A stretch of 64,000 nucleotides of DNA, taken from the NCBI GenBank assembly GCA_944363635.1, contig CALVUP010000002.1, positions 21,974-85,973 on the forward strand, given 5' to 3'. The stretch comes from an uncultured Bacilli bacterium (GTDB taxonomy: Bacteria > Bacillota_I > Bacilli_A > RF39 > UBA660). Under the pieces are notes generated by a model. It was not told the DNA's origin, searched no databases, and was given only the letters and a program-made list of their open reading frames with translations. Of this stretch, positions 6,957-60,105 are shown piece by piece. The position numbers were made by a program, and so were the translations under genes. Position 1 is the stretch's first letter. Each line of letters begins with the position of its first letter.

Positions 6957-6968
6957 AAAATCACCCAT

Positions 6969-7050
6969 AAAAAATGACGCACATAAAAATGAATTATTAA
7001 GGCTGCTACTTTCCAGTCCTGACCTGATTCTAATTATTCTTATTGCGTCT
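6969..7050 (-). ncRNA. ffs: small SRP RNA (4.5S-type, ~80 nt)
   Basis: Minus-strand read 5'-GACGCA..AUCAGGUCAGGACUGGAAAGUAGCAGCC..UGCGUC-UUUUUU closely matches SRP RNA domain IV (E. coli CAGGUCAGGUCCGGAAGGAAGCAGCC) with a GGAA tetraloop. Closing helix GACGCA/UGCGUC, 3' U-tract, and a TTGAAA-17-TATTAT promoter placing the TSS at about 7050. Confidence 0.7.
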
Positions 7051-7055
7051 TAGTT

Positions 7056-7426: not shown

Positions 7427-9886
7427 TTAAACTTCTTCTTTTTCTTCCTCAATATCAATATTATTTGTGTCTTCTTCCTGTTCTACAATAGCAATTGTTG
7501 ATACTTTTTGATTATCCTTTAAATGAATTAATCTTACACCTTGCGTAGATCTTTTTAATGTTGATACTTGTTCAAGAGGCATTTTTATAATAATTCCACT
7601 ATCAGTAATAATCATAATATCAAAGTTTTTGTTTTTATCTACACACTTCAAAGAAACCATCATTCCATTTTTCTCTGTGATATTTAATGCTTTAACACCT
7701 TTGCTACCTCTATGTGTTAATCGATACTCATCAATATCTGTTTGTTTTCCATATCCATTTTCAGTAACAACTAAAATATTACTATCTGTTTGAACGACTT
7801 CTCCACTAATAACACAACTATTGTCTAAGTCAATTCCTTTTACTCCAGATGCTGATCGGCCCATTACACGAATTTCGCTTTCTTTAAATCGAACCAATCG
7901 ACCATTATTCGCACCAATAATAATTTCATTATTACCAGTTGTCGCGCGTACACTAATTAATTCATCTTCTTCACGAAGAGTAATTGCGAGTTTTCCTGAT
8001 TTTCGAATTCGATCAAATTCGTTTAAAACCGTTCTCTTAACAATTCCGAATTTAGTAATAAACACTAAGTATTTATTTACTTCGTTATCACGAGATAGTC
8101 CAATTATCGAACTAATGTTCTCATTTTTCTCTAGTGGTAATAAATTGACAATCGGCAATCCCTTTGATTGTCTACTAAATTCTGGCACTTCATAACCTTT
8201 TATTCTATAAACTCTACCTTTATTCGAGAAGAATAATAAATAATCATGCGTTTTCATAGATATCAAGTGTTCGACAAAATCCTCCCCATTGGTAGACATC
8301 CCTTTAACACCAACTCCACCTCTATTTTGTGTTTTATATGTATTGTATTTCAATCTCTTTATATATCCTTTATTCGTCAATGTAACAATTACATCTTCAT
8401 TTGGAATTAACGATTCATCTTCTATATAATCAATAGCTGTCATATCAATGCTTGTTCTTCTTTCATCTCCATATTTATTCTTAATTTCAAGCATTTCTTT
8501 TTTAATAATTTCAAGAACTTTAGCTTCACTAGCTAAAATAGATCTTAATTCATCAATTTCTGCTAATAATTCTTTTAATTCATTTTCAATTTTATCTCTT
8601 TCTAAGCCAGTTAATCTTCTAAGTTTCATTTCAAGTATAGCTTGTCCTTGAGGTTCTGTTAAAGCAAAACGACTCATCAATCCTGCTAAAGCTTCAGTAT
8701 CACTTTTAGATTCTCTTATTAATTTAACAATAGCATCAATATGATCTAAAGCAATCTTTAAGCCTTCTAATATATGTGCTCTTTTTTCATCTTTATCCAA
8801 ATCAAATTTTGTTCTTCTAATAATGATTTCTTTTTGATAATCAATATATTTAGCAATAATATCTTTTAAACCTAAAGTTTTAGGGACTCCTTGATCTAAC
8901 ATCAAAAAGATAATACCATAATTTGTTTGAAAAGCTGTATGCTTATATAGATTGTTTAATACAACTTGTGGATTTGCATCTTTTTTTAATGTTATGGTTA
9001 TTTTGACACCATCTTTTAAATCCGTATGATAATCTGTAATGCCATCAATAACTTTATTATGAACCAATTCTGCAACTTTATTTTTTAATTCTAAAGTATT
9101 AATTCCATAAGGAACCTCATCCACAATAATATAATGTCTACCATTTTTTTCTTCAATAGTAGCTCGACTGCGAATAGTAATAGTTCCTCGTCCGGTTTCA
9201 TAGGCTTTTTTAATTCCACTATTTCCTAAGATAATTCCGCCCGTTGGAAAGTCTGGACCCTTTATATATTGCATTAATCCATCTAAATCAATATCCGGAT
9301 TATCAATGTATGCTACACACCCATCGATAACTTCTCCTAAATTATGAGGTGGAATATTCGTAGCCATACCAACAGCAATTCCCATAGTCCCATTTACTAA
9401 AATATTAGGAAAACGAGAAGGAAGAATCTCTGGTTCTTTCTCAGATTCATCAAAGTTAGGTATAAAATTTACTGTATCTTTATTAATATTTCTTAATAAT
9501 TCTAAAGAAATTTTAGAAAGCCTTGATTCGGTATAACGCATAGCTGCAGCCCCATATCCTTCGATATTTCCGAAATTACCATGGCCATCTACAAGCATAT
9601 AACGATAAGAAAAATCTTGTGCCATTCTTACCATAGCTTCATAAATAGAAGAATCTCCATGTGGATGATATTTTCCCATAACATCTCCAACAATTCTAGC
9701 ACTTTTTTTATGAGGTTTATCTGGAGTATATCCTGATTCATACATAGAATATAAAATTCTTCGATGTACTGGTTTTAATCCATCTCTTAAATCAGGTAAT
9801 GCTCTAGCAACAATAACACTCATTGAATACTCAAGAAATGAATCTCTAACTTCTTTAACTATATTGTTTTTTTCTAATCTATCCAT
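7427..9886 (-). CDS. gyrA: DNA gyrase subunit A
   Basis: 819 aa, catalytic tyrosine region AAMRYTE, C-terminal beta-pinwheel repeats. Confidence 0.95.
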
Positions 9887-9896
9887 GTTTTACCTC

Positions 9897-11822
9897 CTAA
9901 ATATCAAGATTCTGAACATAAACGGCATTTTCTTCAATAAATTTTCTCCTTGGTTCAACTTCTTCTCCCATTAATTTTGAAAAAGTATCATCCGCAGACA
10001 TTGCATCCTCAACAGTAATTTGCCTTAAAACACGTTTTTCTATGTCCATTGTTGTTTCATTTAATTCTTCCGCATCCATTTCTCCTAAACCTTTCATACG
10101 CATAATGTCATATTTCGTATTTGGAGATAATGTTTTTAGATATTCATCTCTTTCTTGTTCATTTAAAACATATTTGATTGTTTTTCCATGCTTGATTACA
10201 AATAATGGCGGTTGTGCGGCATAAACATGCCCTGCTTCTACAATTGGTCTAAAAAATCGATAAAATAAAGTCAATAATAAAACACGAATATGAGATCCAT
10301 CAACATCAGCATCAGTCATAATTATAATTTTATCGTATCTTAGTTTACTTAAATCAAAATCATCACCAATACCGGTTCCAAAAGCAGTAATAATGGTTCT
10401 GATTTCTTCGTTAGATAAAGCACGATCCAATCTAGCTTTTTCAACATTTAATATTTTGCCTCTTAATGGAAGAATTGCTTGTCTCATACTATCTCTTCCT
10501 TTAATAGCAGAACCTCCTGCGGAATCTCCTTCGACCAAAAAGATTTCACATTCAGAAGGATCTTTACTCTTACAATCTGAAAGTTTTCCATAGAAATTGG
10601 TAATATCCAAATCTCCTTTTCTTCGTGTTAATTCACGTGCTTTTTTAGCAGCAACTCGAGCACGAGAAGCGGTCATTCCTTTATCTATAATGACACGTGC
10701 TTGATCTGGATTTTCCATTAAAAATCTTTCTAAAGCAGCAGAAAAGATTCGATCAGCAATTCCTCGACATTCACTATTTCCAAGTTTTGTTTTTGTTTGC
10801 CCTTCAAACTGTGGATTTGGATGTTTAATGGAAATAATCATAGTTAAACCTTCTTTAACATCTTCTCCACTTAATGGATCATCTTTTTCTTTTAAAATAC
10901 CTGCATCTTTCGCATATTTATTCAAAACCCTGGTTAAAGCTCTTTTAACTCCATCCTCATGAGTTCCACCTTCTGGGGTATTAATATTATTTACAAAAGA
11001 ATAAATATTGGAATTATAAGACTCGTTATATTGTAAAGAAACTTCTAAAGAAATATCCTTTTCACTACCATTACAAGAAATAATCGTTTCATGAATAGGC
11101 TTTTTATCTTTATTTAATAACGCTACATACTCATCAATTCCACCTTCATAATGAAAAGAATCCTTTTTATTATCTTCTCTACAATCATATAAAGAAATTC
11201 TTAATCCCTTATTTAAAAAAGCCAACTCACGAAGTCTTGTTTTTAAAACATCGTAATCAAATATAGTAGTCTCAGTAAAAATATCTGGATCAGGTTTAAA
11301 AATGACCGTTGTACCTGTTCGATCAGTAGGACAAGTATCAATAATTTTTAATTCTTCTACTGGATGTCCTCCGTGAGTATATCTTTGAAAGTAAACATTT
11401 CCATTCTTATATACACGAACTTCCAACCATTCACTTAAAGCATTAACAACACTAGCTCCAACACCATGTAAACCACCAGAGACTTTATATCCGCCTCCAC
11501 CAAATTTACCTCCTGCATGTAACACAGTATATACCGTTTCAACTGTACTTTTTCCTGTTTTAGGATGAATATCTACAGGTATACCTCTTCCATCATCCTT
11601 TACAGTAATAGTATTTTCTTTACCAATTTCAACCTCAATATGTGTACAATATCCAGCTAATGCTTCATCAATTGCATTATCAACAATTTCCCACACCAAA
11701 TGATGTAACCCTCTAGAACTCGTTGTACCAATATACATACCCGGTCTTTTTCGTACAGCTTCTAGTCCTTCTAAAACTTGAATAGATGAAGAATCATAAG
11801 ATTCATTTTTTACATTTTCCAT
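9897..11822 (-). CDS. gyrB: DNA gyrase subunit B
   Basis: 641 aa, GHKL ATPase, Toprim [19 protein letters not shown] motifs. Confidence 0.95.
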
Positions 11823-11825
11823 AAA

Positions 11826-12935
11826 TTACCTTCTTTCTATTTTTCCTGCTGTCACTTTAAAAACAAAAGCATCTTTGATTATTTTTTTACTCAAACCTCT
11901 TAAATCTGTTGCAGTAATAATGGTTTGAATATCTTTGTTAATAAATTGAATCAATTTATTTTTCTTGGACTTATCTATTTCACTAAAAATATCATCCAAC
12001 AATAGTATAGGACTTGTATTTGTCTTTTCTTTAAAAATATCAATTTCTGCTAACTTTAAACAAATAACACTCAATCTTTGTTGGCCCTGAGAACCAAACA
12101 ATTTTAAATTTTCTTCTCCAATAAAAAACTCAAAATCATCTCGATGTGGTCCATACAGAGTCATACCTTGCAACAATTCTTTTTTATAATTTTCCTTATA
12201 TTTTTTTCTTAATTTTTCTTTAATATTTTCTTCGTTGAAATCTTCAATATCACAATTATTTAAATACTTAATCCATAATCCTTTTACACCAGCAATTTCA
12301 TAGTATAAAGATGAAATATTTTGATTAATTTTATCTATAAATTTTTGTCTCGATTGATAAATAATAACTGCTTTTTCAATCAATCTTTCTGTAAGTATAT
12401 CTAAATATTTTTCATCACGAAAATGATTAATATATAACATTTTTAAATATTCATTTCTGTTTTTTAATAATTTGTTATATTCATTTAAAGTTGTTATATA
12501 AGAATGGGAAATTTGACTGATTTCTATATTTAATAAATTTCTTCGAACAGAAGGAGAACCTTTAATAATTTCTAAATCATCTGGAGTAAATAAAATGACA
12601 TTCAAATTTGAAATATAATCTGAAATTCTTTTAATAGGGGTTTTATTTTTAAAAACTTTTTTTTCATTTTTAGTAATTTGAATTTCTAAAGTTTCCAAAA
12701 TTCGATCTTTTTTAATTTTTCCTTCTATTTTTAGAGAATTTTTTCCATAAAGAATTAAATTAGATTCATTTACATTGCGATGTGATTTTGTTAAAGCTAA
12801 AACATATATACTTTCAAGAATATTAGTCTTTCCTTGAGCATTATTCCCTATGAAAATATTGATTTTATTATTTAATGGAACAGAAACTTTCTCATAATTT
12901 CTATAATTTACTAAATTTATTTTTTTTAAAATCAC
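11826..12935 (-). CDS. recF: DNA replication/repair protein RecF
   Basis: Walker A GNNAQGKTN, SMC-like signature, 369 aa, between gyrB and dnaN. Confidence 0.9.
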   Translation of the reverse strand: MILKKINLVNYRNYEKVSVPLNNKINIFIGNNAQGKTNILESIYVLALTKSHRNVNESNLILYGKNSLKIEGKIKKDRILETLEIQITKNEKKVFKNKTPIKRISDYISNLNVILFTPDDLEIIKGSPSVRRNLLNIEISQISHSYITTLNEYNKLLKNRNEYLKMLYINHFRDEKYLDILTERLIEKAVIIYQSRQKFIDKINQNISSLYYEIAGVKGLWIKYLNNCDIEDFNEENIKEKLRKKYKENYKKELLQGMTLYGPHRDDFEFFIGEENLKLFGSQGQQRLSVICLKLAEIDIFKEKTNTSPILLLDDIFSEIDKSKKNKLIQFINKDIQTIITATDLRGLSKKIIKDAFVFKVTAGKIERR

Positions 12936-13055
12936 GTTATTGCTATAAAAATGCTCATAAAATCACCTTTTACTGTTTTCTAATACTCCTATACATACAT
13001 ATTTATTATAACATATACAGACAAAAAAAAGAACATTTTTGCCCTTTTTCTAAAA

Positions 13056-13529
13056 TTATTTCATAAAATAGATATTCTTTTGATCCGTCGTACGATTTCT
13101 TAGTACCGATTCTAATCTTGTGGATCGTAAAATCTGATTTTCAATAGATCGATAAGAAACAGGAACATTCATTTTTTTCCCTTCTTTAAAATAAAGGTTT
13201 GTTGTATGATTTTCTCCTTTTTCTATTTTTTGAATATTATGCAAGGAAATCCAGATACAAGAATCTAATGCAGGTGATTCCGTTGGGAAAAAAATAATAT
13301 AATTTTCTTCTTTTACTATAATAGGTACTTTATAACTAGAACCTAATATATTTTGACTTCCACCTTTTCGCCCTTCATATGTGCTTCCAAAATATTGACA
13401 ACTCGCATCCATAATTTCATATGGATTTTTCTCCACAACAAATTCATAATCCTTTTCTAATACTTTCGTTTTCTTTTTATCAATTGGTAAAATAACTAAA
13501 GTATCCTCATTAATTTCATAACTTTTCAT
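13056..13529 (-). CDS. comK: ComK-family competence transcription factor homologue
   Basis: SYEINEDTLVILP, CQYFGSTYEGRKGGS, IIFFPTESP..C.WIS and VPVSYRSIENQ blocks align with B. subtilis ComK (SYEVNGATIAVLP, CRFFGSSYAGRKAGT, IFLFPT, LPISYNSFENQ). Confidence 0.75.
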   Translation of the reverse strand: MKSYEINEDTLVILPIDKKKTKVLEKDYEFVVEKNPYEIMDASCQYFGSTYEGRKGGSQNILGSSYKVPIIVKEENYIIFFPTESPALDSCIWISLHNIQKIEKGENHTTNLYFKEGKKMNVPVSYRSIENQILRSTRLESVLRNRTTDQKNIYFMK

Positions 13530-13544
13530 AAAATTCCCCCTAAA

Positions 13545-13610
13545 TAAAAAAATTCTACATTAAATGTAGTGTTTTTAAAATAACACATAAAAATGTAGAA
13601 TTTTGTTGAA
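13545..13610. promoter_or_regulatory. Nested AT-rich inverted repeats upstream of comK and downstream of dnaN
   Basis: AAATTCTACATT ... AATGTAGAATTT outer dyad enclosing CTACATTAAATGTAG and GTGTTTTTAAAATAACAC dyads. A/T tracts resemble ComK AT-box architecture, but the function is unproven. Confidence 0.3.
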
Positions 13611-13612
13611 TT

Positions 13613-14731
13613 TTAATAGGTTCGTATTGGTAATACCAATTCTGTTAAAGTTTTATCTTCGTCTGAATTTAAAATAATAGGTTTAACTTCTCCAAAGAAA
13701 CAAATATCCACAGTTTCTGTTGAAAAAGCTTTTAAAGCATCCATCATATATTTAGAACTAAAAGAAATTTTAATATTTTCTTTCATTGTATTGTTAATCA
13801 TCATTTTTTCTTCTACTTTACCAATTTCTGCAACAAAAGAACGCAAAGTTAAATGATTATCTTCGATCTCTAAAGTAATAATATTTTTTTCTTTATCTGT
13901 AGATAAGATACTTGTTCGATCGATAGTATTATAAAATAGATCCTTATCTACATTTACTTTTAATATAGGATCTTCTGGAATTAAATTTGAAGTATTTGGA
14001 TAAGTGCCACTAATTAATCTTGTTTGAAATAATAAATTATTATATTTAAATAGAAGTTTATTATTAAAAATATTAATTTCTATATCCACATCTTCTGTTA
14101 ATATTTTAGAAAATTCCAACAAGTTTTTACTAGGAATAATTAAATTAAAGGATTCTTTATTATCACTTAAATTCACAATTTTTCTAGACAAACGATAAGA
14201 ATCAGTAGAATTACATTCTAATAGATCTCCTGTAATATTAAAATTAATTCCAGTTAAAGAAGGTTTAGACTCATCCGTACTTGCTGCAAAACAAGTTTGA
14301 TTGATAATTTCATTAAATAAATCTCTGCTTAGTTTTACTTTATTTTTGCTTTCTTCCAAATGAATCGTAGGATATTCTTTTTTATTAATTCCATTTAGAT
14401 TAAATTCACTATTTTCAGTATAAATGATTACTTTAGAATCATCTATAATTTCTATATTTATATACTCATCTGGTAATTTACGAACAATATCTAATATATA
14501 TTTCCCTTGAATAACAATACTTCCTTCTTCTTTAATTTCTAAATTTTCGTTATCTTCGTTTAAATGGGTTTGAATGGTTATATCATTATCGGATGCTGTA
14601 AGTATTAATTGATTGTCTTTCGCATCAAAACAGATTCCAGATAAAACAGGTATGATATTTTTGCTAGATAAAGCTTTTGATACTTTATTTAATTCTTCTA
14701 ATAAAATCACTTTTTTCACTTTTAATTTCAT
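13613..14731 (-). CDS. dnaN: DNA polymerase III beta sliding clamp
   Basis: 372 aa, three-domain clamp, immediately downstream of dnaA. Confidence 0.9.
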   Translation of the reverse strand: MKLKVKKVILLEELNKVSKALSSKNIIPVLSGICFDAKDNQLILTASDNDITIQTHLNEDNENLEIKEEGSIVIQGKYILDIVRKLPDEYINIEIIDDSKVIIYTENSEFNLNGINKKEYPTIHLEESKNKVKLSRDLFNEIINQTCFAASTDESKPSLTGINFNITGDLLECNSTDSYRLSRKIVNLSDNKESFNLIIPSKNLLEFSKILTEDVDIEINIFNNKLLFKYNNLLFQTRLISGTYPNTSNLIPEDPILKVNVDKDLFYNTIDRTSILSTDKEKNIITLEIEDNHLTLRSFVAEIGKVEEKMMINNTMKENIKISFSSKYMMDALKAFSTETVDICFFGEVKPIILNSDEDKTLTELVLPIRTY

Positions 14732-14854: not shown

Positions 14855-16225
14855 TTATTTTTTTGAACAACTATCAATTTCTTTTTGTAAAATATCAATA
14901 ATTTGCCGTAATTCAGGATTTACTTTTAGTTCCCTTTCTATTTTATCACAAGAATGGATGACTGTCGAATGATCTTTACCTCCAAATTCAATTCCTAGTT
15001 TAGGAAAAGACTCATCTGTGCAATTCCTACAAAGATACATAGCAATTTGTCTTGGAAAAGCAACATTATAGTTTCTTTTCTTGCTTTTTAGATCTTCTAT
15101 GGATATTTTAAAATATTCTGCTACAATTCTTTGTATTTTATGAACATCATCTTTTTCATATGAACCTTTACTAACATAATCCGTTAGCGCATCCATTGCT
15201 AGATCAACTGTGATATCACATCCCCCCATCATAGAAGAATAAGCAAGCAAACGATTAATAGATCCTTCCAATTGTCTTACATCACCACTAACATTAAATG
15301 CAATATATTCAATTACATCTTCTGGAATATTTTTTTCAATGATGGAAGCTGCTATTTTTTTCTTCACAATGGCAACTCTTAAATCAAAGTTTGGTGGTTG
15401 AATATCAACCGTAATTCCCCAACAAAATCTTGTTTTTAATCGATCTTCAAGTTTTTTTAAATCATCCGGAGAACGATCAGAAGAAATAATAATTTGCTTG
15501 TTACTATTATATAAAGAATTAAAAGTATGAAAAAATTCTTGTTGCGATTGTGTCGTTCCACCTAAAAACTGGATATCATCGATAATTAAAACATCAATAT
15601 TACGATATTTATCTTTAAAAAGATCGATTACATCTAGATTATTACTATTATTTTTTTTATTAATTCCAACAAAATCTTCAATAAATTTATCACTTGTAAC
15701 ATATAAAACCTTTTTATTCGAATGTTCCGTTATATAATTTCCAATTGCATGCATTAAATGTGTTTTTCCTAAACCACTATTCCCATATATAAATAAAGGA
15801 TTATAAATACTACCTGGATTTTCCGCAACTGCAACAGCTGTCGCATGAGCTAATCGATTACTATTTCCAACGACAAAATTTTCAAAAGTATATTTTTTAA
15901 TAAGATTGGTCTCAAAATGATTGTTTATTTCATTGTGTATATTATTATTTATTTTTTCTTCTTGCTTCATATCCATGATTTCATCTTGAAGAAAATATTC
16001 AATATTTTTATAATCCGTATAAATTGTGGATAAAGTTTCATCAATAATATCTTTATATTTATCATGAAGATGCGTTTTGTGGATAGACATTGGCACAATT
16101 ACTCGAAAAATACCATTATCTATATCATATAAAGAAGTGTCTTTAAACCATGTTTCATAGGATAATGTTGATATTTTATCTTTAATTTTTTCTAAAAAAT
16201 TGTCCCAAATGATTTTATAATTCAT
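14855..16225 (-). CDS. dnaA: chromosomal replication initiator DnaA
   Basis: AAA+ Walker A GNSGLGKTHL and C-terminal DNA-binding domain. Start taken at MNYKIIWDNF (ATG 16223-16225) because the track's upstream codons encode the RBS GGGAGGTG. Confidence 0.95.
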   Translation of the reverse strand: MNYKIIWDNFLEKIKDKISTLSYETWFKDTSLYDIDNGIFRVIVPMSIHKTHLHDKYKDIIDETLSTIYTDYKNIEYFLQDEIMDMKQEEKINNNIHNEINNHFETNLIKKYTFENFVVGNSNRLAHATAVAVAENPGSIYNPLFIYGNSGLGKTHLMHAIGNYITEHSNKKVLYVTSDKFIEDFVGINKKNNSNNLDVIDLFKDKYRNIDVLIIDDIQFLGGTTQSQQEFFHTFNSLYNSNKQIIISSDRSPDDLKKLEDRLKTRFCWGITVDIQPPNFDLRVAIVKKKIAASIIEKNIPEDVIEYIAFNVSGDVRQLEGSINRLLAYSSMMGGCDITVDLAMDALTDYVSKGSYEKDDVHKIQRIVAEYFKISIEDLKSKKRNYNVAFPRQIAMYLCRNCTDESFPKLGIEFGGKDHSTVIHSCDKIERELKVNPELRQIIDILQKEIDSCSKK

Positions 16226-16321
16226 TTTTTTCAACACCTCCCCGCCTGAAAATAAAGGTTTGATTACCATTATTCTAAAACAAATACACAGAAAAATAAA
16301 GTAAAAAAAACATAATTTTTT

Positions 16322-22732: not shown

Positions 22733-24055
22733 ATGTTTATGGATAACAGTAATGAAAAAAACGAAGTAGTTTATTTATATTTAGATGATATCATTCCAAA
22801 TCGATTTCAACCAAGAGAAAGATTTGATGAGGGGGCATTAAGGGAATTAGCAGCTTCGATCAAAGAACACGGAGTTATTCAACCAATTATTGTTCGAAAA
22901 ATCGGAGACAAATATGAGATCATTGCTGGAGAAAGAAGATATAAAGCTTCCGCTTTAGCAGGACTTACAAAAATCCCTGCAATTATTCGAAATTTAGATG
23001 ATAAAGAATCAAGTAAAGTAGCCCTTTTGGAAAATTTACAAAGAAAAAATTTAAGTCCAATAGAGGAAGCACGAACTTATCAAAAAATCTTAGATTTGGA
23101 TCAAATGACACAGTTTGAATTAGCAAAAACCATGGGAAAATCACAACCCGTTGTAGCAAATAAATTAAGATTGCTTACTCTTCCTGATGAGGTACAAGAA
23201 GCGTTATTAAAAGAGCAAATTTCAGAAAGACATGCCCGTAGTTTATTAGCGCTAAATAACGCAGAAGATCAAATAGAGATGCTACATAAAATAATTAATA
23301 ATCGGATGACAGTTCGTGAAACGGATGAAGAAATAAGAAAAATGACAAATACTGCAAATTTTGGATTACCAGGATTAGAAAGTACACATGTTGAGAAAAC
23401 AGAACCTAAAAATCAAATGGAGCAACCAATGCCAAAACCTACACAAATCAATGTTCAACCACAAAAAAGTACTGTAATGCCACAAATGCCAAACTATGAA
23501 GTCAATCAAAATATTGCTACTATTCCAGATGTGAACACATTAAGAGAACAGGCTGTGGATATAAACGATTTAAACAAAATGCCTACGAATGTTGCTCCAA
23601 CAGCTGTATCTCAAAATGAAGGAAAACAAGAAGAAGCAATTCAACCTGTATTACCTGAAATATCTGAAAGTGATCAGGATAAACCATTTATTGATTTAGA
23701 AGAACTGTTAAAAACACCAGAGACTGTACCTATTGAAGAACAACCACCAAAGCAAGATCCACCAAAAGAAGAAACCGAAGAGTTATTAGAAAAAATTGAA
23801 ACATCTGAATCTCAAGCATTAGAAGAAACCTTAGATGTTGAAAAATTAGATGACACACCAAAGCCAAAAGCTTCAGAGGAAAAGCCATTACCTTCTGTTA
23901 TAGATACAAAATCAATAAATGTATTTGATTTACGATTAGCAATTTCAACGATTCGAGATACAATTAAACAATTAGAAGATAAAGGAATAAATATAGATAC
24001 TGAGGAAATTGATTTTGAAGACCATTATCAAATAGTAGTCAAAATTCAAAAATAA
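22733..24055 (+). CDS. noc: Noc-like ParB paralogue with a long acidic/Pro-rich internal insertion
   Basis: ParB N-domain GERRYKA. The HTH region GKSQPVVANKLRLLTLP aligns with B. subtilis Noc (GKGQSTIANKLRLLKLP), not with Spo0J. C-terminal dimerisation segment is also Noc-like. A ~190-aa low-complexity insertion lies between them. Start at 22733 or 22739. Confidence 0.7.
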   Translation: MFMDNSNEKNEVVYLYLDDIIPNRFQPRERFDEGALRELAASIKEHGVIQPIIVRKIGDKYEIIAGERRYKASALAGLTKIPAIIRNLDDKESSKVALLENLQRKNLSPIEEARTYQKILDLDQMTQFELAKTMGKSQPVVANKLRLLTLPDEVQEALLKEQISERHARSLLALNNAEDQIEMLHKIINNRMTVRETDEEIRKMTNTANFGLPGLESTHVEKTEPKNQMEQPMPKPTQINVQPQKSTVMPQMPNYEVNQNIATIPDVNTLREQAVDINDLNKMPTNVAPTAVSQNEGKQEEAIQPVLPEISESDQDKPFIDLEELLKTPETVPIEEQPPKQDPPKEETEELLEKIETSESQALEETLDVEKLDDTPKPKASEEKPLPSVIDTKSINVFDLRLAISTIRDTIKQLEDKGINIDTEEIDFEDHYQIVVKIQK

Positions 24056-41152: not shown

Positions 41153-42118
41153 ATGTCAAATATTAAAGAAATAGAAGAATTAAAAGAATTAAAACAAAGA
41201 GTCGAGAAATTAAATGAGGAAATCATACAATATTCTGTGTATCCAAGTAAAGCCTTAGCTAAATCTTTTGCCAAATTGCTTACAACCTTTGGACAACAAA
41301 CTTTTTATGTTTCGGCTGAATATTCTAATACGTATAGCATTTATTATAACTATTATGGACAGCATTTCATTTTTAGCTTATATAATAATGCTCCAGGTTG
41401 CAGTAAATATATCAAAACATCTAAAGAACAGACTGTCTTTTGCCCAGCAGACTATAAAGGCATAGATTCTTATTATCGTAAACAACGATTGCCAATGTAT
41501 ATCTATAATTTTATTGATTATGCATTTAAACAAAGAGTAGAGAAAAACTTGGTAAACATTACAGAGGAAGAGTTGGATGTAATTGTAGAGGAATATATTA
41601 AAAATGTTAAAGAGGAACAGGCTCAAAAAGCTAAAACTAAAGAGCAAATAGAAAAAGAAAAACAAAGAATCTCTTTTGAAAAAACATGTATGGTAGATCG
41701 AGAAAGCATTTTTTATGCGATTGAGAGTATAATTACAAAGAGTGATGAAAAAGCTTATAGTGGCGTACATTATGGTAAGCAAAAAGATAAAACGAAAAAA
41801 GAAAGCACTTTTTTAGTTACCAATAGTCTTTATATTTTACTAAATGGGAGACTAAAAGACTATCGAACACTATTAGATACTGTGCAAGAACAAGAGGAAG
41901 ATAAAGTAGTAATTGATAAAAACAAAGTACCATATATTAATTTTTTTGATTTAAAGAATTATTTTTCATATGCTTATGAAAATCTAGATTGTTTTCATAA
42001 CTTTATGGATGATGTAGAATCTTTATATCAAGATAGAAAAGCGGTAGGAAAGAAAGATATTGAACTTTTATTAAGTCGCGAAAAAGAAAACAACAAAGTT
42101 AAAATGAAAACAGAATAG
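41153..42118 (+). CDS. hypothetical protein with charged coiled-coil segments
   Basis: 321 aa, strong RBS GGGAGG, K/E-rich helical stretches; no domain recognised. Confidence 0.5.
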   Translation: MSNIKEIEELKELKQRVEKLNEEIIQYSVYPSKALAKSFAKLLTTFGQQTFYVSAEYSNTYSIYYNYYGQHFIFSLYNNAPGCSKYIKTSKEQTVFCPADYKGIDSYYRKQRLPMYIYNFIDYAFKQRVEKNLVNITEEELDVIVEEYIKNVKEEQAQKAKTKEQIEKEKQRISFEKTCMVDRESIFYAIESIITKSDEKAYSGVHYGKQKDKTKKESTFLVTNSLYILLNGRLKDYRTLLDTVQEQEEDKVVIDKNKVPYINFFDLKNYFSYAYENLDCFHNFMDDVESLYQDRKAVGKKDIELLLSREKENNKVKMKTE

Positions 42119-48902: not shown

Positions 48903-49427
48903 ATGAAAAAACTTATATTATTTGGAATTGTTTGTTTTGCTTTGTTTTCCTTCATAAACATAAAAGAAGAAGAACTAATTATTCCGGATGAAGCGATTCG
49001 TCTTCGTGTAATTGCTTCTTCCAATTCTGTAGAAGATCAAAATATTAAAAAACAAGTACGTGACAATATTCAAAAGGAAATTGTGAAATTATCGGATGCT
49101 AAAGATATTGATCGTACAAGAGAAAATATAAAAACAAATCTAGATACAATCGAACAAATAACCAAAGAAACATTGAAAGAATTAAATGTAGATGAAGAAT
49201 ATGATATTCATTATGGATATAATTATTTTCCTGATAAAAAATATAAAGGAGTAACCTATGAAGAAGGATATTATGAATCATTGGTTATTACGCTAGGAGA
49301 AGGAAAGGGAGAAAATTTCTGGTGCGTTTTATTTCCTCCACTTTGCATGTTAGAAGCCGAAGAAACACAGACCGATGAAGTCGAATATAAATTTTATATA
49401 CAAGAATTATTAGAAAAATATTTTTAA
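48903..49427 (+). CDS. spoIIR: stage II sporulation protein R homologue
   Basis: IRLRVIASSNS and ITLGEGKGENFWCVLFPPLC match B. subtilis SpoIIR (IRLRILANSDS, ITIGEGKGENWWCVLFPPLC). Adjacent to prfA-prmC as in B. subtilis. Confidence 0.75.
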   Translation: MKKLILFGIVCFALFSFINIKEEELIIPDEAIRLRVIASSNSVEDQNIKKQVRDNIQKEIVKLSDAKDIDRTRENIKTNLDTIEQITKETLKELNVDEEYDIHYGYNYFPDKKYKGVTYEEGYYESLVITLGEGKGENFWCVLFPPLCMLEAEETQTDEVEYKFYIQELLEKYF

Positions 49428-52261: not shown

Positions 52262-53020
52262 ATGAAAAAAATAATTATACCACTACTTATAACGATATTT
52301 ATTGTTTTTGGTATTTACAATTTTTATAACGAAGATAAGTTAAACTATGTAGCTTTGGGCGATTCTCTTGCTCAAGGAGAAAATCCTTATGGAGAGATCG
52401 GATATGGTTATGCGGATTATATTAAAGAATACCTAAGTGGAAAAGATAAATTAAAAAGTTATACAAAAGGTTATGCAAAAAGCGGGGATACAACAGAGGA
52501 TTTAATAGATAAAATCAAAAACAATGTCAAAGCAGAAATTGATAATGAACAAATTGGCATCAAAAGAGCGTTAAGAGAATCCGATCTAGTAACAATATCC
52601 ATTGGAGCAAATGATTTAATTCAAAATATGCATTTTAAAAACATTCAATCTTTAGATACAATTGATTACACGGAGATTGAAAAAAACATTGATAAAGTAA
52701 CAGAAAATGTGGATAAAGCAATTACGGAAATAAAAAAGTATGCGAAAAAAGAGATTTTATTAATTGGATATTATAATCCAATTAACAAAAAAATTGTGGA
52801 CAACGAAAAAATGAAAGCTTTAATCGATAAAATCGATGCATTATACACAGATATTTGTGCAAAACAAGAAATTGTTTATATTAAAATTTCGGATGTATTT
52901 GTGCAAAACGATCAATTCTTACCAAATCCTTTCAATATTCACCCTAATTATAAAGGTTATCAAGCAATTTCCACAAAAATTATTAATTATTTAGAAAAAA
53001 ACAATAAAAAACTTGCATGA
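52262..53020 (+). CDS. SGNH/GDSL-family hydrolase with N-terminal anchor
   Basis: GDSL block VALGDSLAQG, GAND block. Confidence 0.65.
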   Translation: MKKIIIPLLITIFIVFGIYNFYNEDKLNYVALGDSLAQGENPYGEIGYGYADYIKEYLSGKDKLKSYTKGYAKSGDTTEDLIDKIKNNVKAEIDNEQIGIKRALRESDLVTISIGANDLIQNMHFKNIQSLDTIDYTEIEKNIDKVTENVDKAITEIKKYAKKEILLIGYYNPINKKIVDNEKMKALIDKIDALYTDICAKQEIVYIKISDVFVQNDQFLPNPFNIHPNYKGYQAISTKIINYLEKNNKKLA

Positions 53021-53098
53021 AAATAAAATTATTGATATAATAATTTCGCATTTAATTACTATGATTAATATTTAATCATGGCGGAAGGAGAGATAAGT

Positions 53099-54086: not shown

Positions 54087-54713
54087 ATGAAGAAAAATTT
54101 AAAGTTAAGACCATTTGTATTACCAACAATCTATGCATTATCAGTCATAACATTGATTATAAGTATTTATTATGCAGCCAATACATTAAAAACTTCAGAA
54201 GATGAATATTATACTTATGTTACAAGTTCAATTATGGATACAGATATTCCAGTAATCGCAACTGATATTAAATTAATAAGACCCTACACCAATACAGAAG
54301 TGACAATAGGAAAAAGTTATTATGATTACAAAGCAGAAAAAGAAGAACAAGAAAATTCCATAACTTATTATGAAAATACGTATATGCAAAATGCTGGAGT
54401 TGATTACGTCTTAAAAGATACTTTTGAAGTCGTTAGTATTTTAGATGGAACCGTTATTGATGTAAAAGAAGATGATATTGTTGGAAAAACGATTACAATT
54501 AAACATGACGATAAAATAGTGAGTGTTTATCAAAGTTTATCGGAAGTAAACGTAAAGAAAGATGATCAAGTCACACAAGGTCAAATTATTGGAAAAAGTG
54601 GAACCAATAAATTAGAAAAAGATTTAGGAAACCACTTATATTTTGAATTATCTATAGATGGATCCGTAGTAAATCCTGAAGATTATTACGATAAAAAAGT
54701 AAATGAAATTTAG
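54087..54713 (+). CDS. membrane-anchored M23/LytM-domain protein (SpoIIQ-like by context)
   Basis: N-terminal TM plus C-terminal LytM-like domain. Sits directly upstream of spoIIID-mbl, the position of spoIIQ in clostridial genomes. Confidence 0.45.
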   Translation: MKKNLKLRPFVLPTIYALSVITLIISIYYAANTLKTSEDEYYTYVTSSIMDTDIPVIATDIKLIRPYTNTEVTIGKSYYDYKAEKEEQENSITYYENTYMQNAGVDYVLKDTFEVVSILDGTVIDVKEDDIVGKTITIKHDDKIVSVYQSLSEVNVKKDDQVTQGQIIGKSGTNKLEKDLGNHLYFELSIDGSVVNPEDYYDKKVNEI

Positions 54714-57297: not shown

Positions 57298-58029
57298 ATG
57301 TTAAATTTTATAATTGGTGAAGATAACACAAAATTTTCTGCACGCACCAAACAAATCATTGAAAATTTTATGATGAATTATGATATTGAATATCATATGG
57401 ATTGCTTTCCAAATTATGGGAAGGATTTTAAAAAGGCGGCCAAAGCAGAAAGTGGATTTAAAATATATTTTCTTGATATCAAAACAGATGAAGGTTCAGG
57501 ACTTGATGCAGCTCGAATGATTCGAGAAGAACTAGATGATTGGGTATCCATTATTGTTATTATTACTTCTTATACAGAGTATAAATATGAAGCGTTAGGA
57601 AATAGATTATATTTATTAGATTTTATATCTAAGTTTGATGATTGCGAGAAAAGAATTAAAGAATGCTTAGAAATCGCTTTAAAAAATTATGATAATAGAC
57701 ATAAATCTTTAAGCTTTTCTTATAATCATATCATAAAGAAAATTGAATATAGAAACATTGTCTATATTGAAAAAGAGCAAGAGAGTAAAAGATGTATTAT
57801 CAACACAACCTATGGAGATCATTTTATAAACGATACATTAAATAATGTTTATGCAAAATTAGATAAACGCTTTATCAAAGTAAATCGAAGTTTAATTGTA
57901 AATTCTGATTTTATTAGAGAATATGATGTAAAAAATAATAAGATCATATTTTCAAATGGAACCTATACACATTTAATATCAAAAACAGGTAGAAAGGAAT
58001 TAATGAAGTATGTTGGAAGTAGTAATTAA
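57298..58029 (+). CDS. LytTR-family response regulator (AgrA/ComE-like)
   Basis: Receiver-like N-domain (FLDIKTDEGSGLDAARMI) plus C-terminal LytTR DNA-binding domain; 243 aa. Confidence 0.75.
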   Translation: MLNFIIGEDNTKFSARTKQIIENFMMNYDIEYHMDCFPNYGKDFKKAAKAESGFKIYFLDIKTDEGSGLDAARMIREELDDWVSIIVIITSYTEYKYEALGNRLYLLDFISKFDDCEKRIKECLEIALKNYDNRHKSLSFSYNHIIKKIEYRNIVYIEKEQESKRCIINTTYGDHFINDTLNNVYAKLDKRFIKVNRSLIVNSDFIREYDVKNNKIIFSNGTYTHLISKTGRKELMKYVGSSN

Positions 58030-59299
58030 ATTTTTATGTAGTTTAATTGGTTCTGTAGCCGGTATTCTAATAATCGAAAATATTTCTAAAATAAAATTTA
58101 AACTCAATTTAAAAAACATAATATTATTAATACTTTTATCAGTAATTACAACATTACAATTTAAAACAGAATATACTATAACCATATCTTTAACTGTATA
58201 TATACTTATAATAATGATATATAAATGGTTATTTAATATGAGTTATAAAAAATCTGTATTATTGGGTGGAGTAGTATTAATAATTACTTCGATGTCCGAT
58301 TTAATGTGGGCAATAATATTAAAACAATTTTTTACTAACGATCAATTAAGAGAACCAACTATTTTATTTTTAATGTTTAATATGTTAGTATATTCAAGCG
58401 CATATTTTTTATCTCATGTGTTTAATTATAAACGATTTCTAACAAAATTTATTGCCAAAACAGATAATAGTAAAATATATAGTCAGTTTATTTTTATAAT
58501 TTTAACAGTGGTTGTTTCGTGTTTAATAATATATGATATTACATCTCTTAAGATTATTGGAATGGAACAATATATAATTACATTATCTACTTTTGTTTTA
58601 ATGTTAATCCTGGTTTTGATTTATATTAAATCAAAAAACGATAATGATAAGTTACAAGAACAATTCGATTATTTATATAATTATTCTAAGAATTATGAGG
58701 ATTGGATTACCAAAGAACAATTAAATATTCATGAAAACAAAAATCAATTGATTGTATTACGCGATATGGTTAAAAAGAATGAAAAAGCGGTAAACTACAT
58801 TAATGAGATCTTGGAAGAAGATTTTGTTATAGAAGATAAATGGATTGGACAATTATCCAATATTCCAAAGGGTGGGTTAAAAGGATTATTATATTATAAA
58901 TTAATTACGATAGAAAAAGACAATCTAAACTTTTGTGTAGATATTAGTAAAAATGTTAAAACAAAGTTAAAAAAATTACAGAAAGATCAATTAAAAGATA
59001 TTAGTCATATCATTGGTATATTTATAGACAATGCGATAGAAGCTTCTGTAAATTCTAAGAAGAAAATGTTCTCTTTAGAGATTTATTGCATAAAAAAAGA
59101 ATTGAATATAGTAATTACCAATTCATTTGATGGCCAAATTGAACTTAATAAAATTAATAATAATGGATATTCTACCAAAGGAAAAGACCGTGGTAAAGGA
59201 TTGTATTTTGTCTCTAAAATAAAAGAGAAAAATCCAAATATACTTACGGAAGCACATATTATTAATAATTATTTTGTACAGAAAATTATTATAAAATAA
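58010..59299 (+). CDS. AgrC-type (HPK10) membrane sensor histidine kinase
   Basis: Six N-terminal TM helices; C-terminal GHKL ATPase with N-box FIDNAIEAS and G-box GKDRGKGLY; 429 aa; 20-nt overlap with the upstream RR gene. Confidence 0.75.
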   Translation: MLEVVIKFLCSLIGSVAGILIIENISKIKFKLNLKNIILLILLSVITTLQFKTEYTITISLTVYILIIMIYKWLFNMSYKKSVLLGGVVLIITSMSDLMWAIILKQFFTNDQLREPTILFLMFNMLVYSSAYFLSHVFNYKRFLTKFIAKTDNSKIYSQFIFIILTVVVSCLIIYDITSLKIIGMEQYIITLSTFVLMLILVLIYIKSKNDNDKLQEQFDYLYNYSKNYEDWITKEQLNIHENKNQLIVLRDMVKKNEKAVNYINEILEEDFVIEDKWIGQLSNIPKGGLKGLLYYKLITIEKDNLNFCVDISKNVKTKLKKLQKDQLKDISHIIGIFIDNAIEASVNSKKKMFSLEIYCIKKELNIVITNSFDGQIELNKINNNGYSTKGKDRGKGLYFVSKIKEKNPNILTEAHIINNYFVQKIIIK

Positions 59300-59303
59300 A
59301 AAT

Positions 59304-59337
59304 AAAACTCCTATCATCTTTGAGTTTTATTTTTTTT
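59304..59337. terminator. bidirectional terminator between the kinase gene and agrD
   Basis: AAAACTC/GAGTTTT stem followed by T-run; A-run on the other side serves the convergent agrD transcript. Confidence 0.55.
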
Positions 59338-59342
59338 ATAAT

Positions 59343-59459
59343 TTATTTGAAATAAGATGGCGCTTTGGGTTCATCAATAAAGAACCAAATACATCCCATA
59401 CTTGCTGCGGAAGTGGCTAACATCGCAACTGCAGCTAATACTTTTGCTACTTTTTTCAC
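59343..59459 (-). CDS. agrD: AgrD-like autoinducing-peptide precursor (38 aa, GTG start)
   Basis: Minus-strand ORF MKKVAKVLAAVAMLATSAASMGCIWFFIDEPKAPSYFK. Perfect RBS GGAGG 7 nt upstream of GTG. Amphipathic leader, Cys-containing core CIWFF, acidic/Pro recognition tail IDEPKAP. Lies 58 bp downstream of agrB; too short for the ORF track. Confidence 0.8.
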   Translation of the reverse strand: MKKVAKVLAAVAMLATSAASMGCIWFFIDEPKAPSYFK

Positions 59460-59517
59460 TTTACTACCTCCTACTACTATATTTATCTAAATTTATAAAA
59501 ATAAATTAGATACAAAA

Positions 59518-60105
59518 TTAAATATGTTTGTAATTCGCATAAGGCTGTTTAAACAATTTATAAAACAATGGATTAATCATAATACTTTCTAATACAAGAG
59601 CAATCAGAAATAGATTGGCTATAGAAGTATTAAAATGCATAATACAAATGAAATAGATAATAGCAATAACAATAGTAGTTATCTTTCGAATCATACGTAT
59701 TTTTTTATCTCGGAAAGGTCGCTTAACTGTATCTGCAGGTGCAAAGAAGAAATAGGAAATGATGCAACCGATAGCGATTAAACACATAATAGTTTTATTA
59801 AGTTGGATATATTGAAATAATAATGGGAATCCAATAAAGAACAAACTTGATGTAATTAAGCATTGATAACTTTTCTCTGCATGAAACCCAAACCCAGTAT
59901 ATCGAATAATATTAAATAATATTAAAGTGAAAAAAACTTCTTTTTCTATATGAAAAACAATAGCGAATAGAATAATTAGAATTAATTTTGATAAAGTTAA
60001 ATATAGTCCTTCAAGTCCATATAATAGTTTTTCTTTGTCTTCTTCAGAATAATCATTATATTTTAAAATTAAATGATAAAAATTATGAATTACTACTTTT
60101 TTCAT
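59518..60105 (-). CDS. agrB: AgrB-family membrane endopeptidase
   Basis: 195 aa multi-TM. RYTGFGFHAEKSYQC aligns with S. aureus AgrB RRHAHGAHAPSSFWC, conserving catalytic His and Cys at identical spacing. FAPADTVKRPF and ESIMINPLFYK also align. Confidence 0.85.
   Translation of the reverse strand: MKKVVIHNFYHLILKYNDYSEEDKEKLLYGLEGLYLTLSKLILIILFAIVFHIEKEVFFTLILFNIIRYTGFGFHAEKSYQCLITSSLFFIGFPLLFQYIQLNKTIMCLIAIGCIISYFFFAPADTVKRPFRDKKIRMIRKITTIVIAIIYFICIMHFNTSIANLFLIALVLESIMINPLFYKLFKQPYANYKHI

Follow-up and report, generated by a model that had tools for sequence, protein, structure and literature searches.

What governs a comK gene that lies among the replication genes, and how far does the comK circuitry of Bacillus subtilis extend to it? 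The question is raised by a stretch of 64,000 nucleotides from an uncultured Bacilli bacterium of the RF39 lineage (assembly GCA_944363635.1, contig CALVUP010000002.1, positions 21,974 to 85,973), hereafter the window, whose own numbering is used throughout. An earlier note on this DNA had pointed to a ComK-family gene downstream of dnaN and to repeats in the spacer between the two. We suggest, with a probability of about 0.55, that this short comK is a transcription unit of its own, expressed from a compact promoter gated by phosphorylated Spo0A (Spo0A~P), with a nested dnaN terminator. In this reading we infer Spo0A binding and its sign, the transcription start, the terminator function, the dosage effect and the role in competence.

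A genuine ComK-family gene downstream of dnaN

The open reading frame (ORF) at 13056-13529 on the minus strand, with an ATG start at 13529, encodes a short-form protein of 157 aa. The profile search that the earlier note had proposed for its ComK assignment matched Pfam PF06338 end to end (E 2.2e-45; a score of 154.5 bits where the cut-off is 22.3; protein residues 2-147 aligned with positions 2-151 of the 152 in the model), confirming that this is a genuine ComK-family gene with a full-length core. The window protein is 39% identical (E 9e-39, residues 2-146 on 10-157) to the long-form representative P0166 (192 aa), which we take to be the Bacillus-type ComK, as over 192 aa it shares 56% identity with ComK of B. 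subtilis. The exact protein with the same neighbours was found in four places from four samples, and 16 contigs carrying the protein were read; the locus is therefore not an assembly artefact.

A conserved, predicted promoter upstream of comK

One genome per species was scanned for relatives of the window ComK, which gave 531 loci, and the best 80 were examined. The dnaN-comK spacers of these relatives are 83-234 nt long; 77 of them entered the box counts and 73 the alignment of promoters and hairpins. The spacers follow one plan, in which, usually after a dnaN terminator, there are phased boxes, an extended -10 element, a 5' hairpin and a ribosome-binding site.

The boxes have the clade consensus TTCGACA, a heptamer found 62 times in the 77 spacers against 0.6 times in dinucleotide shuffles, the baseline for box enrichment. 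Counted by region across the loci, the spacers hold 63 copies in the orientation of transcription and 3 in reverse (5.1 per kb), and in all other regions, on either strand, the density does not exceed 0.14 per kb. Up to three boxes occur in relatives, spaced by a multiple of 10 bp or close to one, most often by 10 or 20. With the loci anchored on the proximal box, a box-like sequence stands 10 bp upstream in 48% of them and 20 bp upstream in 68%, and no boxes were found at out-of-phase positions in any locus so anchored. TTCTACA, the variant seen in the window, shares phased arrays with TTCGACA in other species.

The end of the proximal box is exactly 11 nt from the -10 in 60 of the 73 loci, and the -10 is preceded by TGTG, TATG or TTTG, corresponding to the TRTG -16 motif of Firmicutes, so that the whole reads as a TRTG-n-TAnnnT element; no -35 hexamer lies at 16-18 nt in the comK promoters of the relatives. 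A hairpin starts at the predicted 5' end of the transcript, with z < -1.5 in 86% of the 73 loci and a median z of -4.0, and its stems vary (GAAAAC/GUUUUC, GAAAGC/GCUUUC, GCAAAU/AUUUGC; read by eye, with no formal covariation count). The most enriched 7-mer of the orthologous spacers is AGGGGGA (50 of 77).

The window spacer (13530-13612, 83 nt) holds the same elements on the minus strand. Its proximal box, TTCTACA (13594-13600), is a 6/7 match to the 0A box, the binding site of Spo0A, and ends 11 nt upstream of the -10. A distal box, TTCAACA (13604-13610; TGTTGAA on the plus strand), is substituted at core position 4 and occupies the position of the middle box of the clade consensus. The two boxes stand head to tail, one helical turn (10 bp) apart. 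Comparison with relatives identifies a TGTG -16 motif (13584-13587), then a T and the -10 hexamer TATTTT (13577-13582) of a predicted sigma-A promoter, and no -35 hexamer lies at 16-18 nt from this -10. Because a consensus promoter scan of the window returned background-level hits only, the promoter prediction rests on that comparison. Transcription would start at about 13571, which places the hairpin CUACAU-UUA-AUGUAG (13555-13569; -4.0 kcal/mol, z = -3.8) at the predicted 5' end of the comK transcript. A U7AU3 run (13542-13552) and a Shine-Dalgarno sequence, AGGGGG (13536-13541), 6 nt before the ATG, can be read from the sequence.

The nested inverted repeats that the earlier note had described in this spacer are real by arm lengths, folds and shuffles. 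The outer dyad has arms of 16 nt each (13546-13561 and 13592-13607) that are 94% complementary; a second dyad pairs 13548-13561 with 13563-13576, and an inner GTGTT/AACAC dyad (13582-13586 and 13569-13573) brackets the -10 element. There is also a 14-nt direct repeat, AAATGTAG, at 13562 and 13591. Folded as RNA, the whole spacer reaches -20.8 kcal/mol (z = -4.25; 0 of 200 shuffles fold as well) and the outer hairpin by itself -15.9 kcal/mol (z = -5.2). Rfam has no known RNA family in the spacer.

What the earlier note had missed is that the arms of these dyads are copies of the conserved, 10-bp-phased direct-repeat box. The 5' arm of the outer dyad has the proximal box TTCTACA as its core, and an exact inverted copy of AAATTCTACA, TGTAGAA on the coding strand (13553-13559, minus strand, at about +12 to +18), is part of the 3' arm. 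With at most one mismatch, AAATTCTACA occurs three times within 64 nt here, with one other exact copy in the remaining 64 kb. The nested dyads would then be a compressed version of the promoter region conserved in the clade.

A putative dnaN terminator around the comK promoter

Most relatives carry an ordinary terminator hairpin and T-run right after dnaN. In the four-species subclade of the window (L001, L005-L007), the spacers are the shortest of all, at 83-88 nt, and a separate dnaN terminator is missing. As its second option for the dyads, the earlier note had named a dnaN terminator, and this part of its proposal is plausible: the outer dyad (13546-13607, minus strand; 5' arm 13592-13607, 3' arm 13546-13561) forms a 13-bp stem that runs into U7AU3, in a subclade that lacks a separate terminator, and from these features we infer its function as an intrinsic terminator. 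An outer stem of 11-13 bp with a T-run is retained in all four species.

The most economical reading of the spacer makes the outer dyad the dnaN terminator and places the comK promoter inside the loop. The proximal box with its flanking bases would pair with the 3' arm of the 5' hairpin, with the U-run next, and this structure would replace a separate dnaN terminator. Transcripts reading in from dnaN would hold both arms and terminate at the outer dyad, while those from the comK promoter would start inside the loop, without the 5' arm, form only the -4.0 kcal/mol hairpin and read into comK.

Candidate ligands of the phased boxes

The clade consensus TTCGACA is the exact reverse complement (7/7) of the Spo0A 0A box TGTCGAA. 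Spo0A contacts G2, C4 and G5 of this box, and single changes cut its affinity about 10-fold (PMC3485338). The comK promoter of B. subtilis is a direct target of Spo0A~P, with three sites that activate and two that repress; one of them overlaps the -35 (PMC3297582). Moreover, RF39 bacteria are predicted from gene content to sporulate, a process for which spo0A has been described as strictly required (PMC10868615), and SpoIIR is encoded in the window (Pfam E 9.4e-40). On the grounds of the box match, the contacts, the B. subtilis comK precedent, RF39 sporulation and SpoIIR, Spo0A~P ranks as the likeliest ligand of the array.

Spo0A dimers use head-to-tail boxes at 10-bp spacing. Repeats that replace the -35 and end about 10 nt from the -10 belong to response-regulator-activated promoters (Pho boxes, spoIIG, spoIIE). 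In the window, the two head-to-tail boxes TTCAACA and TTCTACA would sit in place of the -35 before the TGTG-extended -10, and phosphorylated Spo0A would bind these phased boxes and gate comK transcription. Because the geometry of boxes and -10 resembles that of response-regulator-activated promoters, we lean, by analogy, towards activation as the sign of this regulation.

The short ComK itself is a serious rival as the ligand. In an AlphaFold2 (AF2) model of the window ComK, built with 26 homologues (mean predicted local distance difference test score, pLDDT, 91.8), the top Foldseek matches are 3d6w, 4xqn, 4cbv and 3bs1, which are LytTR domains of AgrA and ComE, with probabilities of 0.94-1.0 and target-normalised template modelling (TM) scores of 0.55-0.61 for isolated LytTR domains. 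Pfam LytTR also matches the protein, below threshold (E 0.003), and a search of the PDB by sequence returned no solved ComK structure. The model indicates that the window ComK has a LytTR-like, beta-rich DNA-binding fold, in agreement with a 2026 preprint that ties ComK to the LytTR, RemA and SwrD folds.

Given this fold, the phased boxes might be autoregulatory sites of the short ComK, with the resemblance to Spo0A boxes a coincidence. LytTR regulators bind direct repeats about two helical turns apart, and the best-kept boxes are 20 bp apart. The motif is confined to comK within the 64-kb window and about 0.7 Mb of related loci, all box copies in the window subclade have shifted together to TTCTACA, as would be expected if the binding protein had co-evolved, and B. 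subtilis ComK does autoregulate. We nevertheless consider this explanation unlikely. The consensus matches the 0A box at 7/7, with the 10-bp head-to-tail phasing that we associate with Spo0A, and TTCTACA and TTCGACA occur together in single arrays of many species, which points to weaker and stronger versions of one site, not to a new specificity. Furthermore, the known ComK site, as quoted in PMC7470987, is AAAA-N5-TTTT read through its A/T tracts, not a heptamer with a CG core.

Two such AAAA-N5-TTTT elements form the B. subtilis K-box consensus (quoted in PMC7470987), and the first option of the earlier note had been that the dyads with their A4/T4 tracts are AT-box-type sites of this kind for ComK autoregulation. 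This did not hold: the window spacer contains no AAAA-N5-TTTT, even with one mismatch, and its A4/T4 tracts flank the 7-bp boxes at a spacing of N7, not N5. The promoter of the closest relative (L006) is likewise free of AT-boxes when one mismatch is allowed. Taken together, the orthologous spacers show a moderate enrichment of AAAA-N5-TTTT (57 against 24 in shuffles), and the L008 group of species has one AT-box between two boxes. This signal, however, consists of the A/T runs of terminators and of that one AT-box in one species group, and full K-boxes were matched only six times, by overlapping hits within three related loci, each borrowing A/T runs of the dnaN terminator. K-boxes are thus largely ruled out for the window, and the idea that B. 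subtilis-type K-boxes underlie the dyads is hardly credible.

DnaA would be a third candidate, which would couple comK to replication if the boxes were weak DnaA boxes. The 0A box TGTCGAA resembles the DnaA box TGTGNATAA, and the two overlap in the B. subtilis origin; DnaA also acts as a transcription factor in B. subtilis, for example at sda (PMC5295017). In addition, TTTTCGACA is one position away from the commonest DnaA box of the clade, TTTTCCACA, and comK adjoins the dnaA-dnaN region. The two kinds of spacer, however, divide almost perfectly at the discriminating base. In dnaA-dnaN spacers TTTTCCACA dominates (99 of 223) and G occupies that position in about 1%, whereas the boxes of the comK spacers carry there a G (65%), T (19%), A (8%) or C (6%). 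DnaA boxes (TTWTNCACA, at most one mismatch) reach 0.9 per kb in dnaN-comK spacers against 11.6 in dnaA-dnaN spacers and are not enriched upstream of comK, and the spacers of the origin region hold practically no TTCGACA (0 forward, 1 reverse over 11.4 kb). This C/G partition between origin and comK spacers rules out reading the comK boxes as DnaA boxes, and control of comK by DnaA is accordingly very improbable. The motifs of CodY, Rok, PhoP and WalR were compared by eye only, and each fitted worse than the 0A box.

Two other sites in the window resemble such boxes. At 52708-52975, in the 3' half of a GDSL-lipase ORF, five DnaA-box-like 9-mers, each one mismatch from TTTTCCACA, lie within about 270 bp and may be a DnaA-box cluster outside the origin. 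At 14940-14969 (minus strand), in the 3' end of dnaA, an exact 0A-box heptamer TTCGACA forms the -35-like part of a promoter-like site, TCGACA-17-TAAAAT, with an upstream TG; dnaN may have an internal promoter there.

A probable transcription unit of comK alone and the leader of recF

On its downstream side, comK is closed by a terminator-like hairpin and T-run after the stop codon (13024-13051, minus strand; -8.9 kcal/mol, z = -3.4). A recF promoter, TATGT-TATAAT (13005-13015, minus strand), can be read from the sequence beyond it, and TATGnTATAAT stands upstream of recF in most relatives listed. As recF has its own promoter, comK is a separate transcription unit.

Between this promoter and recF lies an upstream ORF of 8 codons (MSIFIAIT; 12932-12958, minus strand, read from the sequence) with a strong Shine-Dalgarno sequence, whose TGA overlaps the GTG start of recF; the layout is the same in nearly all relatives. 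The recF leader as a whole (12932-13015, minus strand; loci L005-L047) is strongly conserved in the clade, with a TRTGnTATAAT promoter, a stretch GTATGTATAGGA(G/A)TA and an upstream ORF of 7-9 codons with a strong Shine-Dalgarno sequence, whose stop overlaps the recF start in relatives (GTGA or ATGA). This suggests translational coupling or leader-peptide control of recF-gyrBA. Rfam has no family that covers the recF leader. In a further set of loci (L008-L014, L058, L064 and L066), the ComK ORF is about 170 aa long, runs through the region that holds the recF promoter elsewhere and ends at the TAG of a conserved TATAGGAGTA leader, so that either the C-terminus of ComK differs or recF is expressed differently there.

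Gene order and placement next to the origin

The genes around comK are all on the minus strand: dnaA (14855-16270) and dnaN (13613-14731; Pfam DNA_pol3_beta domains on the identical gene) upstream, and recF (11826-12935; Pfam SMC_N on the identical gene), gyrB (9897-11822, directly after recF) and gyrA (7427-9886) downstream. The ORF order dnaN-comK-recF agrees with the earlier note that comK fills the slot held by yaaA in B. subtilis; in the window there is no yaaA-like gene between dnaN and recF and no remB/yaaB between recF and gyrB. The DnaA-box clusters around dnaA are no more than about 3 kb away from comK.

The earlier note had also called this placement unusual. It is so by comparison with B. 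subtilis, but within the clade, a broad radiation of uncultured Bacilli, the arrangement is fixed. Among the 80 loci, each one that keeps both flanks has the order dnaA-dnaN-comK-recF-gyrB-gyrA, with DnaN identity down to 43% and RecF identity down to 39%. The records of these loci are labelled uncultured gut 'Bacilli', 'Tenericutes' or 'Erysipelotrichaceae', with Clostridium sp. CAG:451 and CAG:417 in addition. Further ComK lineages were checked by contig look-up, and the basal P0145 group, most of which shows this synteny, was sampled directly; four of five (P0280, P0293, P0391 and P0403) have dnaN-comK-recF. Among them, P0280, a very prevalent ComK with the source label Candidatus Faecisoma, has the same neighbours as the window comK, and the genus Candidatus Faecisoma corresponds to GTDB CAG-878 of the order RF39 (PMC8035907). 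P0391 and P0403, which group at the base of the long-form branch of the ComK tree, also have dnaN-comK-recF, once with a zinc-ribbon ORF inserted. The host clade is thus one of uncultured gut Bacilli, at least partly of the order RF39, and the placement of comK would have been fixed in the ancestor of a large radiation of small-genome uncultured gut Bacilli, RF39 and relatives. A site next to the origin would add a replication-dependent gene-dosage input to comK.

A few loci depart from the common layout. A 230-aa ORF is inserted between dnaN and comK at L078:4186-4997, a zinc-ribbon ORF on the opposite strand is inserted in the comK slot at L092:5547-5894 (also in L093), and small membrane-like ORFs follow comK instead of recF on one short contig (L091:1629-2209).

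A short ComK and its possible role

An exhaustive HMMER search for the ComK family gave 1189 clusters at the 50% identity level, and a neighbour-joining tree of its best hits falls into two groups, a very diverse short-form group (146-157 aa, including the window protein) and a long-form group (165-213 aa, including B. subtilis ComK). The short-form clade makes up about 90 of the 132 full-length matches among the top 150. A profile search from distant short forms retrieved central members of the ComK family, not distant ones, and no NCBIfam model matches the window ComK.

The alignment of the window ComK to the long form stops at about residue 157 of P0166, leaving the window protein without roughly 35 C-terminal residues. 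The short form terminates where the C-terminal tail of B. subtilis ComK starts, with its activation region and MecA/ClpC degron. This tail is required for transcription activation and dispensable for DNA binding (Susanna 2006, as quoted in PMC3128618), and the degron FMLYPKEERT... sits in it (Prepiak and Dubnau 2007, as tabulated in PMC8138137). Since both the tail with its degron and the K-boxes are missing, the autoregulation and MecA/ClpCP layers of B. subtilis are probably absent here.

Such a protein might be a ComK-fold regulator that has lost control of DNA uptake and been repurposed, perhaps as a repressor or for the control of recF-gyrBA or sporulation entry. The missing C-terminal region, needed in B. 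subtilis for activation but not for DNA binding, fits this idea, as do a C-terminally truncated ComK2 of B. cereus that lowers comG expression (PMC3128618) and a ComK2 of Staphylococcus aureus that represses competence (PMC12491500). The window ORFs were read by eye and ten of them checked with Pfam, and no comG, comE, comF, dprA or coiA was found in the 64 kb. We regard repurposing as rather improbable all the same, since the core is well conserved against canonical ComK (39% identity), the short forms are a large share of the family, and the absence of com genes from 64 kb says little about the whole genome. Because the window has no DNA-uptake genes, a role in competence is assumed from family membership.

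The other window ORFs are housekeeping genes (recR, dnaX, ssb, a YaaT/RicT-like PSP1 protein and others), together with sporulation and quorum-sensing genes. Among the latter is an agr-like locus (57298-60105) with AgrB (59518-60105, minus strand), a 38-aa AgrD-like peptide (59343-59459, minus strand; ...SMGCIWFFIDEP...), a LytTR response regulator (57298-58029) and a GHKL kinase (58010-59299). It lies directly upstream of hpf-secA, where B. subtilis has its comF operon. The sporulation genes include SpoIIR, adjoining prfA-prmC, and a small M23 peptidase that could be SpoIIQ-like (48903-49427 and 54087-54713), and they belong to an organism of 28.6% G+C from a lineage usually called genome-reduced. 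We found no paper on competence in RF39 or linking ComK with RF39 or with dnaN and recF, and the supplement of the RF39 sporulation paper (PMC10868615) has no per-gene table for spo0A or comK.

Points that weigh against Spo0A gating and the nested terminator

Several observations weigh against a comK promoter gated by Spo0A~P with a nested dnaN terminator. The window boxes match the 0A core at 6/7, with A or T in place of the contacted C4, and no consensus 0A box is present here. In assays of Clostridioides difficile Spo0A, the C4A change lowered affinity about 10-fold (PMC3485338), and the window sites would be low-affinity ones because core position 4 is changed. Exact 0A boxes occur at chance level across the 64-kb window, which also holds no spo0A gene. 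Tandem boxes occur nowhere else in the window, the array being found at the comK promoter only, and a regulator dedicated to comK, ComK itself included, would explain such comK-only boxes equally well. As for the terminator, covariation is absent from the outer stem, whose arms are invariant among the four closest species and which has only two G-C pairs; the terminator scan demands three G-C pairs in the stem and for this reason missed the outer dyad. The comK promoter and its transcription start are predicted from conservation alone, and the conservation of position may be passive, as the flanking genes are themselves rigidly syntenic. The lack of DNA-uptake genes in the window counts in the same direction.

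Comparison with known systems

The likeness to B. subtilis ComK is a whole-core family match, seen in the identity to the Bacillus-type representative and in the full-length Pfam hit. In contrast to the 192-aa B. subtilis protein with its activation tail and degron, the window ComK has 157 aa and neither, and its promoter is without the K-box of the B. subtilis comK promoter. B. subtilis comK lies far from the origin, whereas the window comK adjoins it. The B. subtilis comK promoter is bound by Spo0A (PMC3297582), and the window promoter may be likewise.

The ComK2 proteins of B. cereus (22 aa shorter; PMC3128618) and S. aureus also lack the C-terminal activation region and have been shown or proposed to damp competence. 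They are second copies beside a full-length ComK1, whereas the short ComK here is the only ComK at its locus, and the short form is typical of the whole radiation, unlike these ComK2 paralogues.

With Spo0A promoters (abrB, spoIIG, spoIIE and B. subtilis comK), the comK promoters of the clade share the TGTCGAA core, the head-to-tail order and the 10-bp period. Like site R1 of the B. subtilis comK promoter, the boxes extend over the -35 region of a predicted sigma-A promoter. Unlike at those promoters, the window copies are position-4 variants, the proximal box ends 11 nt from the -10, binding is predicted, and so is spo0A for RF39 (PMC10868615).

In its placement, the window comK can be compared with two other loci. 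ComE is a LytTR response regulator that works with a peptide signal. Its operon in Streptococcus pneumoniae, comCDE, is likewise an early competence regulator locus beside the origin, and its gene dosage near the origin ties replication stress to competence (PMC8394987). comCDE belongs to another protein family, and the dosage parallel with the window comK is one of analogy only. B. subtilis yaaA (rlbA) occupies the same dnaA-dnaN-X-recF-gyrB-gyrA slot. Its product is an S4-like RNA-binding protein, unrelated to ComK. In the clade yaaA is replaced by comK, and the remB of B. subtilis between recF and gyrB is also absent. In the literature we found neither a comK described in the dnaN-recF slot nor, in any bacterium other than B. 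subtilis, a comK promoter with 0A-type arrays.

Other features of the window

A second ParB/Noc-like protein of 440 aa, whose C-terminal half is long, of low complexity and enriched in Pro, Glu and Gln, is encoded at 22733-24055, upstream of soj-spo0J. A 321-aa ORF at 41153-42118 has no Pfam match. The only Rfam matches of the window are a small SRP RNA (6968-7054) and an L31-Firmicutes ribosomal leader (53059-53090).

Implications

Taken one step further, the promoter and the short protein would form a minimal linear circuit of the RF39 type, in which a degron-less, non-autoregulating ComK is expressed from a promoter whose Spo0A boxes replace the -35 and whose position is fixed beside oriC; we put this forward tentatively and hold it to be doubtful. 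If true, the output of ComK would integrate the state of the phosphorelay with replication-dependent gene dosage, and the locus would be an independent case of origin-proximal placement of a competence regulator, parallel to pneumococcal comCDE. In a stronger version of such a rewired circuit, ComK may control something other than DNA uptake at sporulation entry.

RF39 and its relatives are among the most prevalent uncultured, genome-reduced gut Bacilli of animals and humans, and to our knowledge nothing is known of gene exchange or developmental regulation in them. The promoter and terminator model offered here would add to the annotation of this locus in hundreds of metagenome-assembled species. 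It also indicates that the B. subtilis comK circuitry, with K-box autoregulation and MecA/ClpCP/ComS proteolysis, is not general for the ComK family. A universally retained, origin-fixed comK with a readable promoter is therefore a testable entry to transformability, Spo0A control and the effect of gene position in these bacteria.

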